Shown one piece after another: positions 16,391-18,503 of a stretch of DNA of 64,000 bases; positions within the stretch are counted from its first letter, which is position 1; the number at the start of each line of letters is the position of its first letter. Below the pieces are notes generated by a model. It was not told where the DNA came from. It searched no databases and worked only from the letters and a program-made list of their open reading frames with translations. The DNA is from Eubacteriales bacterium. GTDB lineage: Bacteria > Bacillota > Clostridia > Oscillospirales > QAKW01. The position numbers and the translations under genes are program-made. Where the stretch lies: the NCBI GenBank assembly GCA_045544255.1, contig JAZPYP010000074.1, positions 9,411-73,410 on the forward strand. Reading direction: 5' to 3'.

Positions 16391-16921
16391 TTATTTTTTT
16401 TCTTTCTTTGGCGCCAGGACCATGATCATATTGCGCCCCTCCAATTTGGCGGGCTTTTCGATCACGCAGTTTTCTTCAGTCAGGGAACAAAAACGCTTTG
16501 CGATATCGTATCCCAGTTCAGTATGAGCCATCTCGCGACCTTTAAACTTCACAACAACTTTAACCTTATCGCCGGCTTTTAAGAACCGGTTGGCATGAGA
16601 TGCCTTGGTTTGAATATCGTGGGTATCGATTTTGAGAGTCAACTGAATTTCCTTAACAGAAACAATGTTTTGGTTTTTCTTGGCCTCTTTTTCTTTTTTT
16701 GCCTGCTCATAGCAATATTTACCAAAATCGATAATCTTGCAAACAGGGGGTTGAGCCTTGGGCGCGATCATTACCAAATCCAAATTTTTGCCTTCGGCAA
16801 TCTTGAGCGCATCGGCAGAGGACATGATCCCAAGCTGGCTTCCGTCGGAATCTACAACACGAATCTCTTTCTCTCGGATGGCATCATTGATGCTCAATCC
16901 TTTTGCTTCTTTTGCGTTAAT
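16391..16921 (-). CDS. infC: Translation initiation factor IF-3, ATT (AUU) start
   Basis: IF-3 sequence [17 protein letters not shown]... On the minus strand GGAGG is followed 9 nt later by ATT AAC GCA AAA (ATT at 16921-16919). The ATG-initiated ORF extension (to 17014) encodes an implausible hydrophobic leader. Confidence 0.9.
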
Positions 16922-17077
16922 GTTTCCACACCTCCGAAAAATAATAAAAACGAGCAACATAAATTGCTCGCTCCAAAACATAAAAACACCTAATGATCCA
17001 TTAAGTGAAACCATGTTAACCGCTGCTATTAAAAACGCAGGGTGAGGAACAGAACAATCTATCCTACTTCTTTTTGC
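16922..17077 (-). promoter_or_regulatory. infC-rpmI-rplT leader with attenuator hairpin (L20-leader-like)
   Basis: Leader of about 155 nt. The minus strand has CGAGCAA / TTGCTCG (16951-16970) followed by TTTTTATTATTTTT just before the infC RBS, which matches the known L20-dependent attenuation layout in Firmicutes. Confidence 0.5.
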
Positions 17078-17083
17078 TCATAT

Positions 17084-17112
17084 AGGATACCACACCGCCC
17101 CGTGTGTGTCAA
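17084..17112 (-). promoter_or_regulatory. Candidate promoter of the infC operon
   Basis: Minus-strand TTGACA (17112-17107), 17-nt spacer, TATCCT (17089-17084). Confidence 0.45.
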
Positions 17113-17151
17113 CCTTTTTTTGAAAAAACTTTAATTTTTTTGAAAAACATC

Positions 17152-17180
17152 TTTACAAACTGATAAGAGTTGTGTATAAT
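17152..17180 (+). promoter_or_regulatory. Promoter of the tRNA-Asp/tRNA-Thr unit
   Basis: TTTACA (17152-17157), 17-nt spacer, TATAAT (17175-17180). Confidence 0.7.
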
Positions 17181-17210
17181 AGGGGAGCATTTTGAAGAAA
17201 AATGCCATTT

Positions 17211-17287
17211 GGCCCGGTAGTTCAGCTGGTTAGAACGCTAGCCTGTCACGCTAGAGGTCGTGGGTTCGAGCCCCATCCGGGTCGCCA
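17211..17287 (+). tRNA. tRNA-Asp (anticodon GTC), CCA encoded
   Basis: Cloverleaf folded by eye: acceptor GGCCCGG/CCGGGTC, anticodon loop CTGTCAC, T loop TTCGAGC, 3' GCCA. Confidence 0.95.
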
Positions 17288-17292
17288 TTTTT

Positions 17293-17368
17293 GCTGCTAT
17301 AGCTCAGGTGGTAGAGTGCATCCTTGGTAAGGATGAGGTCACCAGTTCAAATCTGGTTAGCAGCTCCA
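17293..17368 (+). tRNA. tRNA-Thr (anticodon GGT), CCA encoded
   Basis: Acceptor GCTGCTA/TAGCAGC, anticodon stem CATCC/GGATG with loop TTGGTAA, T loop TTCAAAT, 3' TCCA. Confidence 0.95.
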
Positions 17369-17373
17369 AAAAA

Positions 17374-17405
17374 TAAAGCACTTCGTCACGAAGTGCTTTA
17401 TTTTT
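17374..17405 (+). terminator. Intrinsic terminator after tRNA-Thr
   Basis: 12-bp stem TAAAGCACTTCG / CGAAGTGCTTTA, loop TCA, then TTTTT. Confidence 0.8.
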
Positions 17406-17407
17406 AT

Positions 17408-17590
17408 CCAATCCGAAGGATTGGTATGTAATCGCCGATAGGCGTATGTAATCAGTTCGCCTTGCGAACTGTATGTTATCAAAGCGTAAGCTTTGTATGT
17501 TTCTTCCTTCGGATTGATAACATACCACCTACGGTGGATTACATTCCGCAACAAGTTGCGGATTACATGCAATGCTTCGCATTGATTTTT
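17408..17590. repeat. Ordered array of eight distinct mini-hairpins separated by a constant GTATGTAATC / GATTACAT linker, in two convergent halves
   Basis: Read directly from the sequence; coordinates of every hairpin and linker are given in the finding. Confidence 0.8.
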
Positions 17591-17610
17591 CGCCGCTTTT
17601 ATGCTATAAT
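17582..17610 (+). promoter_or_regulatory. Candidate promoter of ORF 17631
   Basis: TTGATT (17582-17587), 17-nt spacer, TATAAT (17605-17610). The -35 overlaps the last hairpin of the array. Confidence 0.55.
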
Positions 17611-17630
17611 ACAGCCAAGGCGGTGATTTT

Positions 17631-18185
17631 ATGAAAAAATCAAAATTGATTCTAAAAACGACTTTGATTATTGTTTCAGTTTTAGCTGTGGGTTTGATTG
17701 GTATTTTTGCGCTTTTATCACTTCCGTGGTTATTGATCTTCGGCGGAATATGGTTATCTCCGGATCCGCCGAAGCCGGAAATTACCAATGGGGAATTCCC
17801 CTTCGAAATCACATATGCAATAAATGAGGAAGTTTATTCTGTTGATGGTGTGTATGTTTGCGAGTATGCAGGAATCGGAGCGGACGAGGGTGTTGGAAAA
17901 TATGTGGATTGGGATGGATATATTAAGGGTACCGAAGATGAAGCTCTGTTTATAATGGAAAAAGACGGTAAAAAAATCTACTGCTCCGTTGGCTGGCCCG
18001 AATATTATATGGATGATCCGGAAGATGATGCAGCAGTTGCGCCGGAGCCGTTTTTTTACAGCGTATACCCCAATAACATGGGAGGAACCACATCTCATTA
18101 TATTAATGATGAAGAAATGCAAACTTACGGCATTTCGATTATCGGTTATGAGTTTTCTGAACCGATAGAAAACGAATTCAAATGA
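17631..18185 (+). CDS. Hypothetical membrane-anchored protein (N-terminal TM segments, acidic extracytoplasmic domain)
   Basis: ATG preceded by AAGGCGGTGA. Hydrophobic N-terminus KTTLIIVSVLAVGLIGIFALLSLPWLLIFGGIWL. I do not recognise a family. Confidence 0.65.
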   Translation: MKKSKLILKTTLIIVSVLAVGLIGIFALLSLPWLLIFGGIWLSPDPPKPEITNGEFPFEITYAINEEVYSVDGVYVCEYAGIGADEGVGKYVDWDGYIKGTEDEALFIMEKDGKKIYCSVGWPEYYMDDPEDDAAVAPEPFFYSVYPNNMGGTTSHYINDEEMQTYGISIIGYEFSEPIENEFK

Positions 18186-18200
18186 TTAGTTTCTAAAAAC

Positions 18201-18503
18201 AGAGACCACTTGGGGCACCCTTCGTAAGGAAGGATAGCCTTGATAAAGCGAGATTTTGGCGCAAAACAGCGTTAAAATGCTCGCCACCCGTCAAGGGTGC
18301 CTGCGCTTTTTGCCTTGTCTTGCATCCAAACTTTCGCCAATCAAGGTGCCATAAGCAGTTTTGAAATACAGATTTTTTGTTCAAGCGAATTGACAAAAAT
18401 CCCGCCATGCTGGCGCATGGCGAGATTTTTTCGATTTGTTTGGGCGAAAAAGAGGCTTTCAAAACCTATTCTTCCTTGCGGAGGGTGCCCCTTGGTGGTC
18501 TTT
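18201..18503. repeat. Imperfect 32/33-nt inverted repeat pair bracketing a roughly 240-bp intergenic core
   Basis: AGAGACCACTTGGGGCACCCTTCGTAAGGAAG (18201-18232) versus the reverse complement of 18471-18503, AAAGACCACCAAGGGGCACCCTCCGCAAGGAAG. About 27 of 33 positions are identical. Confidence 0.75.
18395..18431. terminator. Bidirectional terminator shared by ORF 17631 and sdaA
   Basis: Stem AAATCCCGCCATG / CATGGCGAGATTT (one mismatch), with an A tract upstream and a T tract downstream. Confidence 0.7.

Follow-up and report, generated by a model that had tools for sequence, protein, structure and literature searches.

An array of eight short palindromes set between nearly constant linkers was found in a 64,000-nucleotide (nt) stretch of DNA from an Eubacteriales bacterium (contig JAZPYP010000074.1 of assembly GCA_045544255.1; this whole stretch is called the window, and positions are counted from its first letter). 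We suggest, with a probability of about 0.4, that the array is a dyad-symmetric cassette-boundary element acting at the DNA level, a recombination joint and possibly also an insulator. Its unit is a GC-rich, perfect Watson-Crick mini-hairpin with a C:G closing pair and, in most cases, a loop of three or four bases of the G..A type, followed by an AT-rich linker N-A-T-nnn-A-T-C; an array has three or four such units on each strand, with a conserved centre between the two sets. At the level of sequence, the conservation pattern, the two-fold symmetry, the placement between terminator and promoter and the selection on the hairpins to fold are established by the comparisons below. Exchange, perhaps with promoter insulation, would be the selected role, and locally single-stranded DNA the active form.

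Reading of positions 17000-18000, together with a repeat finder, places eight palindromes at 17408-17584, all of them perfect and all where an earlier note, made from the letters alone, had put them. The fifth hairpin of that note ("H5", 17505-17513) is not independent but belongs to a conserved centre (17504-17516), a truncated and inverted copy of the first hairpin: 17505-17516 is the exact reverse complement of 17409-17420. The near-constant linkers reported between the hairpins are also present, of the TATGTAATC type in the left half and its reverse complement in the right, although the fourth left linker is degenerate and the closing C or G of each hairpin is common to the neighbouring linker, which leaves an unpaired linker of 8 nt. 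With at most one mismatch, GTATGTAATC has 8 copies in the window against 1.9 expected (none of 100 shuffles reaches 8), 6 of them inside the array, which is itself single-copy in the window. H8 is related to H1, since on the other strand it reads CAAnnC-GAA-GnnTTG. The parts are the following, where loci of relatives are given as L plus three digits:

17408-17424, plus strand: first hairpin H1, CCAATCC-GAA-GGATTGG, the same in most family members (alignment columns 2-18 invariant)
17425-17433, plus strand: linker L1, TATGTAATC, with the profile N-A-T-g-t-a-A-T-C
17433-17444, plus strand: hairpin H2, CGCC-GATA-GGCG; the homologous hairpins of relatives differ in loop or stem
17445-17453, plus strand: linker L2, TATGTAATC
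17453-17471, plus strand: hairpin H3, CAGTTCGC-CTT-GCGAACTG, with compensatory double changes in two pairs among 12 relatives
17472-17480, plus strand: inner linker L3, TATGTTATC; most relatives have TATGTCATC or TATGGCATC
17480-17495, plus strand: hairpin H4, CAAAGC-GTAA-GCTTTG, with compensatory double changes in two pairs
17496-17503, plus strand: fourth left linker, TATGTTTC, degenerate
17504-17516, plus strand: conserved centre, TTCCTTCGGATTG, the inverted truncated H1 copy and a recombination breakpoint in relatives
17516-17524, plus strand: linker R1, GATAACATA, of the reverse-complement type
17525-17537, plus strand: hairpin H6, CCACC-TAC-GGTGG; the same hairpin occurs in L115, L095, L072 and L149
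17537-17545, plus strand: linker R2, GATTACATT
17546-17561, plus strand: hairpin H7, CCGCAAC-AA-GTTGCGG, common to many relatives, with wobble variants in L001 and L013
17561-17569, plus strand: linker R3, GATTACATG
17570-17584, plus strand: last hairpin H8, CAATGC-TTC-GCATTG, whose 3' arm gives the -35 of the next promoter

A pattern scan of one genome per species returned at least 120 loci, and among those listed about 40 genome loci have the array architecture; a metagenome scan adds 18, so the array is not unique to one strain. In all, the grammar was found in about 55 independent assemblies, comprising Acutalibacteraceae/Oscillospirales genomes and gut or rumen metagenomes. The carriers in the genome scan are all metagenome-assembled genomes of gut and rumen (Acutalibacteraceae, Oscillospiraceae and unclassified Clostridia). 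Among the matches listed, no two of the roughly 40 family loci come from one assembly, which suggests about one array per linker type per genome; a generic hairpin-chain detector was too noisy for counting arrays of all types. The common layout begins with a tRNA ending in CCA, an A-tract, a terminator, TTTTTAT and CCAATCCGAAGGATTGG, continues with two to four repeats of TATGTAATC plus hairpin and an inner variant linker, and reaches the conserved centre (..TCCTTCGGATT). Three or four repeats of GATTACATA plus hairpin follow, and then CAAGGCTTCGCCTTG-ATTT, the last hairpin overlapping the promoter -35.

The constant linkers and variable hairpins are thus a real grammar that the family conserves. 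The linkers, the first hairpin and the centre are conserved while the stems covary, as the note had asked to be checked in relatives. In an alignment of the left half of 12 sequences, pairing holds in 99.6% of the cells and compensatory double changes occur in four pairs, a result matched by none of 500 shuffles; the H2 helix (alignment A1) was left out of the pair count because MAFFT misaligns hairpins of unequal length. In the whole family 657 of the 690 stem pairs are Watson-Crick. Loops vary freely between close relatives, for example between the window and L115, and the centre covaries with H1 in L021, L055, L062 and L064. Hairpin types reappear in different orders among relatives and come from a limited pool common to several species. 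The linker profile N-A-T-g-t-a-A-T-C is identical in both orientations, with positions 2, 3, 7, 8 and 9 conserved at 94% or more and positions 4-6 at 80-90%. Units are 19-29 bp long, and their lengths peak at 21, 23 and 27.

Two resemblances of the linker were considered by reasoning and dropped: a MazF site (UACAU), present in one linker type only and on the "antisense" strand, and an AUG-UAA start-stop, lost in the TATGTCATC, TATGGAATC and TATATCATC variants.

The earlier note had proposed that the left linkers pair with the right ones in a stack of four-way junctions. This would make the array a single structured non-coding RNA, a rod bearing the variable hairpins, and the minimum-free-energy fold is exactly this rod, pairing L1 with R3, L2 with R2 and L3 with R1. 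The folding is strong against shuffled sequence (z = -7.0 and -8.0 for the two strands as RNA), and, whatever the array type, the right half carries the left-half linker in reverse complement. A weak promoter-like site of the minus strand (TTCATA, 18 nt, TATTAT) and the terminator would enclose an RNA of about 230 nt. The relatives do not bear the pairing out. In the nested linker pairs of 40 arrays, 83 positions deviate from the consensus; 54 of these give mismatches, 26 give a wobble on one or the other strand, and compensation is seen at just 3. The halves are not complementary in L091 (GATTCCATA three times against TATGTAATC), L030 (GATGATATA against TATGTAATC), L059 and L002; L001 has two additional right-hand units, and the arrays of L063, L032, L114, L033 and L207 are one-sided. 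Given so little compensation and such differing halves, the 12-nt inverted repeat 17471-17482 / 17514-17525, which the note had correctly described as perfect, is a peculiarity of this lineage, found in this genome only and without counterpart in the family. What is conserved in the linkers is a motif and not their pairing.

Several further tests point away from a dedicated RNA. A structured RNA normally has a clear G-U excess on its own strand, while here about 5% of stem pairs are non-Watson-Crick and, on either strand, G.T and A.C occur about equally often, in few and balanced counts; the same counts do not tell which strand would be transcribed. Apart from the outward-facing promoter, no promoter is conserved for either array strand in the family loci, and halves and units are swapped freely. 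Rfam (4227 models, 16500-18500, E up to 10) returned only the two tRNAs and a sub-threshold L20 leader, with nothing credible over the array, and five related loci gave no hit at gathering score. We therefore regard the structured RNA as very unlikely. DNA folding, in turn, gave z = -8.7 and -9.5 for the two strands, with nearly equal energies (-46.7 and -46.8 kcal/mol).

The loops also suggest DNA, as the note had guessed from the number of triloops. Triloops and tetraloops stand at 71:29 in the arrays and 9:14 in the adjacent genuine terminators (p = 0.007). The array loops are G..A closed by C:G, whereas those terminators carry GAAA and UUCG loops. DNA mini-hairpins of very high stability, such as d(GCGAAGC), are marked by C-GNA-G triloops. 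Left-half loops divide 19:1 between G..A and T..C, those of the right half 0:38 (p = 2e-14); since this strand bias flips at the centre, the element is two-fold symmetric and each half has its own "sense" strand. The two convergent halves described by the note hold for the window and are not obligatory: the "sense" halves are divergent in sister types of array, and L233 has the same linkers as the window in divergent order. The order of the halves relative to the flanks is therefore immaterial. On one side of the array stands a strong bidirectional terminator and on the other a promoter that faces outward, and the gap that holds the array is predicted to lack transcription.

This symmetry, with one "sense" half per direction in every array, convergent or divergent, could also be that of a bidirectional hairpin-cluster insulator on nascent RNA. 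From either side, a polymerase would meet three or four units of hairpin plus AU-rich tract, and read-through would be paused, terminated or marked for cleavage. The position fits: the array directly adjoins, on one side, the terminator of a tRNA operon with high expression and, on the other, a promoter. A relaxed terminator scan found 7 terminator-like sites in the region against 1.0 expected, four of them array hairpins, and hairpin clusters have been proposed as termination units (PMC8355165). We nevertheless consider this insulator unlikely, since a strong canonical bidirectional terminator already stands ahead of each array, and the linkers hold only 3-4 scattered T instead of U-tracts while their exact sequence is kept far beyond what composition needs. 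The loops are G..A triloops and not the GNRA or UUCG tetraloops of the neighbouring terminators, and the stems show no G-U tolerance.

A motif kept without pairing compensation, with one profile in both halves, is what would be expected of protein-binding sites. The array could be operator- or centromere-like, its 7-9-bp motifs binding a sequence-specific protein (for example an omega-type ribbon-helix-helix protein) that regulates or insulates the cassette promoter, with the palindromes as spacers. The dyad symmetry and the predicted lack of transcription agree with it, as do sister arrays without hairpins, in which opposed contiguous heptads TTCACTN and AGTGAAN abut the -35; one linker type, AGTGATA, fits the omega heptad WATCACW. 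Against it, the sites are spaced at 19-29 bp with several modes and no fixed helical phasing, which argues against rigidly phased cooperative binding on B-DNA. The perfect covarying palindromic spacers with strand-biased loops are left unexplained, one array (L244) persists with no promoter or gene behind it, and no candidate binding protein was seen among the selected cassette proteins scanned. The known boxes of WalR, Fur/Zur, PlcR, Rex and SinR fail on spacing. The operator reading is the best account of the motif conservation and of the heptad-only versions and a poor account of the covarying palindromes; we hold it possible, though doubtful.

By reasoning, the boxes of these same regulators and of CtsR and IHF were dropped for wrong spacing or orientation. 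Resemblances to -10-like elements, to K-turn or box C/D, to primase trinucleotides and to the XerD arm of dif (TTATGTAA) were considered in the same way and dropped.

The recombination seen between strains speaks for the cassette-boundary element. L244, L245 (= L410) and L411 encode an identical SdaA protein, and L244 and L245 share 100% identity over more than 9 kb that includes the whole TATGTAATC array. Their second array, with TATATCATC linkers (type 2), is a unit-level mosaic among the three. Between L245 and L244 the tRNA, the terminator, the first hairpin and all left-half hairpins differ while the linkers are the same, and identity becomes 100% exactly at the first right-half linker, which puts the breakpoint at the centre. 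In L411 the outer left part is L244-like, while the inner hairpin and centre are L245-like, so that the first hairpin no longer matches the centre; its first right-half hairpin is also different. The L244-like and L245-like haplotypes each occur in several independent assemblies. Across species, left and right halves combine freely by a crude identity measure (L095/L244 98% left and 44% right; L096/L201 64% left and 92% right). From these alignments, the arrays stand out as recombination hot spots with unit gains and losses, hairpin swaps, independent histories of the halves and breakpoints at the linkers and the centre, and the linkers, first hairpin and centre as the joints where units and flanks exchange.

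Contigs of independent assemblies end inside arrays or within a few hundred bases of them (L001, L009, L013, L065, L144, L149, L168, L241, L410 and L411). It suggests that the palindromes, or strain heterogeneity at the arrays, break metagenome assemblies.

The flanks of the array are organized as a cassette, with these features in the window:

17211-17368, plus strand: tRNA-Asp(GTC) and tRNA-Thr(GGT), the upstream unit (ARAGORN, Rfam)
17368-17405, no strand assigned: bidirectional intrinsic terminator (A-tract, perfect stem, T-tract) with 18-nt arms that are 100% complementary
17582-17626, plus strand: promoter and 5' untranslated region (5'UTR) module, with -35 TTGATT (17582-17587), spacer CCGCTTTTATGC, -10 TATAAT (17605-17610) and Shine-Dalgarno AAGGCGGTGA (17617-17626)
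17631-18185, plus strand: cassette gene, coding for 184 aa with a membrane anchor at the N-terminus and belonging to no Pfam family; which gene stands at this place varies between genomes
18356-18431, plus strand: degenerate cassette-junction motif (CAGTTTT...GACAAAAA) and terminator before the convergent sdaA, with intact counterparts in L001 and L043

The promoter is near consensus (TTGATT, 17 nt, TGcTATAAT, then AAGGCGGTGA and ATG), and its -35 is the 3' arm of H8. A terminator stands before the array in all of the about 40 loci, and a promoter usually follows, L244 having the TATGTAATC array with neither promoter nor gene behind. The upstream tRNA differs by genome (Arg, Gln, Leu, Thr, Ala or Asn) and is sometimes replaced by a protein gene. 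The genes downstream are unrelated and encode, for example, small membrane proteins or lipoproteins, an Avd-like four-helix-bundle protein or a GNAT. The genes flanking the array in the window show no synteny with the family loci, except for an MtaB homologue in L068. The module of -35, CCGCTTTTATGC, TATAAT, ACACCCAAGGCGGTGAT and ATG precedes unrelated small genes in L001, L038, L043, L076, L083, L115, L229 and L280. In several loci the promoter/5'UTR module (..CCGCTTTTATGCTATAAT..CCAAGGCGGTGAT..ATG) is repeated two or three times in tandem, and ahead of each copy stand a terminator and an array that keeps the grammar but has a different linker. It thus behaves as a "portable" promoter.

These sister arrays head neighbouring cassettes of the same genomes. 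Their linker types are TATATCATC/GATGATATA, ATGAAAT/ATTTCAT, GTGAAGT/AACTTCAC, GTGATAT/ATATCAT and ATGATGT/CATCAT. In L244 and L246, relatives that share the sdaA of the window, a hypervariable cassette block lies between the tRNA cluster and sdaA, and the same region is variable in the window. The junction motif and terminator at 18356-18431 look like the remnant of a further cassette boundary.

Putting these results together, the element would act as DNA and not as a dedicated RNA. When the duplex opens, on the lagging-strand template or in underwound DNA behind a strong promoter, the palindromes would fold into stable hairpins, and the identical linkers, with the conserved first hairpin and centre, would remain as short reusable joints. 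Template switching or recombination at these joints, possibly helped by a motif-binding protein, would swap units and whole flanks. Terminator-array-promoter-gene cassettes would thereby be replaceable while keeping their own expression signals. A second plausible role would be the insulation of the promoter from its highly transcribed neighbour.

Several points weigh against such an element. No recombinase or motif-binding protein adjoins any array at the loci inspected; a Xer-like integrase lies 6 kb from the array in L244, with no homologue in the window or at any other locus. There are at least six linker types, and it seems unlikely that each would have a dedicated protein of its own. Repeats and palindromes could produce the recombination pattern as a side effect, without its being a selected function, and the measure behind the half-array mosaicism is crude. 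On the alignments, the strong conservation of H1, the centre and the exact 9-mer across species calls for sequence-specific recognition. For a cruciform to extrude from duplex DNA, stems of 4-8 bp are short. The untranscribed state of the array is deduced from predicted terminators and promoters, and a one-sided array in L114 (1380-1580, linkers TATGTAATC and CATGTACCC) stops 11 nt short of a Shine-Dalgarno and must therefore lie in a 5'UTR. Between that array and its gene, whose N-terminus we take by eye to be MgtE-like, neither an M-box riboswitch nor a promoter was detectable.

A bolder version of the cassette reading treats the arrays as sites of a new integron-like cassette exchange in Oscillospirales, read by structure plus short motif. 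Several mutually orthogonal linker "addresses" in each genome would keep the cassettes in register, and the hairpins would be actively diversified like an inverse-CRISPR barcode. We consider this quite unlikely.

Among known systems, integron attC sites offer a parallel: both bound tandem exchangeable cassettes and both keep a folded imperfect palindrome while the sequence varies. attC acts as folded single-stranded DNA, and the DNA-like hairpin features and cassette mosaicism of the arrays point the same way. However, no R''/L''-L'/R' boxes are present, with no GTTRRRY or RYYYAAC core visible in 17406-17592, and, beyond the Xer-like integrase 6 kb away in L244, no candidate integron integrase was found in the window or the loci. 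The array cassettes have their own promoter and terminator, and the breakpoints fall at the centre and linkers instead of at one end.

Other known systems were compared in the same way. With repetitive extragenic palindromes and bacterial interspersed mosaic elements (REP/BIME), the array shares extragenic hairpin units after gene 3' ends, both orientations, short conserved linkers and a variable number of units. One passage on REP/BIME (PMC3733652) suggests roles in supercoiling and termination and as single-stranded DNA substrates, and defines the units by one family consensus with a GTAG or CGTC tag. Here, in contrast, the eight stems all differ, only the linker is constant and no GTAG/CGTC tag is present; the 64-kb window has one array, and no two listed genome hits come from one assembly. 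No RAYT (IS200-like) transposase was seen in the inspected 8-kb loci and the one 64-kb window. REP families have tens to hundreds of dispersed copies, often with such a transposase.

Pneumococcal BOX elements (boxA-boxB(n)-boxC) are modular and intergenic, lie near promoters and have strong predicted structure, with conserved ends and a variable number of internal modules, as in the array. Their modules, however, are 45-59 nt of fixed sequence in more than 100 copies per genome, with no constant-linker/variable-hairpin logic and no two-fold unit symmetry. Clustered regularly interspaced short palindromic repeats (CRISPR) likewise alternate constant and variable short segments, the variable part turning over between strains, and also break assemblies. 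CRISPR repeats are constant and 21-48 nt long, with unique non-palindromic spacers and cas genes nearby. The array turns this logic round: its constant part lacks structure and measures 8-9 nt, what varies is a perfect palindrome of 10-19 nt drawn from a limited pool common to several species, and there are two opposed half-arrays. No Cas-like family was seen in the five loci with listed open reading frames, where only selected cassette proteins were scanned against Pfam.

Omega heptad operators/centromeres of inc18 plasmids and lambda-type attP arm sites also have copies of a 7-10-bp motif in two inverted sets about a centre, next to a promoter, and the hairpin-less sister arrays resemble them as contiguous heptads. 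Those sites are contiguous or regular with the binding protein or integrase alongside, whereas the array has irregular spacing and selected palindromic spacers. No ribbon-helix-helix or Rep gene was found by Pfam among the selected cassette proteins.

Each of the nearest known kinds fails at least one testable defining feature, and we therefore class the family as a new kind of element. This agrees with the earlier note, which had set the array apart from REP/BIME, attC and CRISPR and knew of no described element with such a grammar; features defining those kinds, and Rfam, were tested and are lacking here. No description turned up in the literature, which was searched for the linker sequence, mobile promoters and tandem hairpins joined by conserved linkers. 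The constant-linker/variable-hairpin grammar with turnover at strain level is unreported, even if its function were plain insulation.

It is highly improbable that the array is a selfish or relic mobile element without host function, be it a miniature inverted-repeat transposable element (MITE), abutted transposon ends with multiple transposase sites in subterminal position, or an old integrative element whose arms have fused by a tRNA gene. Inverted sets of a repeated short motif do resemble transposon ends or attP arm-type sites, the tRNA-adjacent location varies between genomes, and one copy (L280, from the IMG/VR viral contigs) lies beside terminase and portal genes. On the other side, the array is single in the window, no two listed genome hits share an assembly, and it is conserved across dozens of species with covarying stems. 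Neither transposase nor integrase is nearby. No target-site duplication was found at 17406/17590, where the boundaries merge into terminator and promoter, and MITE or transposon ends were rejected on these grounds. BLAST against 50,697 phage and 72,556 plasmid records gave no match to the array, and two scans of 2.9 million IMG/VR viral contigs gave 1 true array, that of L280; a phage or plasmid element (pac/cos, oriT, sso) was accordingly rejected.

The array of L280 (3900-4330) has on one side a divergent gene of 93 aa, beyond which come genes for a large terminase and a P22-like portal, and on the other the usual promoter with a 193-aa gene. It could be a phage moron or a prophage edge.

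If the cassette-boundary element is confirmed, gut Clostridia would keep part of their accessory genome as self-contained terminator-array-promoter-gene cassettes, whose boundaries are a new type of structured two-fold-symmetric DNA element. It would give a handle on cassette exchange in this phylum, where, to our knowledge, classical integrons have not been reported. It would also be a natural case of short hairpins of DNA, not RNA, under strong purifying selection, and would explain the recurrent assembly breaks in metagenome-assembled genomes of this group.

Some minor observations concern the cassettes. A conserved motif of about 45 nt, CAGTTTTCAGGCACATTYCATTCGTGTCATTAAGTTCAAAMNCCC, is present in L083, L038, L115, L229 and L244 (e.g. 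L244:6700-6745, minus strand), just 3' of cassette stop codons and 5' of the terminator preceding the array. It may mark the 3' end of the cassette. A second version of the motif, CCAGTTCTTTTTCGGACACGAATGACAAAAA, includes the reverse complement of the CAGTTTTCAGGCACATTYCATTCGTGTCATTAAGTTCAAAMNCCC core. In six genomes (L004, L068, L092, L106, L137 and L244) the first cassette gene encodes an Avd-like "23S rRNA intervening sequence protein" (four-helix bundle), followed in L244 by a protein with a SAP/FokI-cleavage domain. No reverse transcriptase was found near the Avd-like genes of these six genomes, and in five loci the Avd-like gene was rejected as a component of a diversity-generating retroelement. 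Pfam on the selected cassette proteins returned nothing beyond 23S_rRNA_IVP, SAP/FokI-like and TMEM164.

In the window, a long-range inverted repeat (CAGAGACCACTTGGGGCACCC / GGGTGCCCCTTGGTGGTCT, 18200-18220 and 18483-18501) brackets 260 nt between the cassette gene and sdaA; inside this interval are the degenerate junction motif and a terminator, which no array follows. GC skew stays positive over almost the entire window, with only short-lived changes of sign and none of them at the array, and a replication origin or terminus there was rejected for this reason. On the minus strand, 16936-17075 matches the Rfam L20 leader below threshold (34.6 bits against a gathering score of 58.7, E = 1.5e-4) upstream of infC-rpmI-rplT, and is probably a true but divergent leader. 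Immediately 5' of the -35 of the tRNA-Asp/Thr promoter (TTTACA, 17152), a direct repeat, TTTTTTTGAAAAAAC..TTTTTTTGAAAAAC (17114-17150), resembles an UP element.

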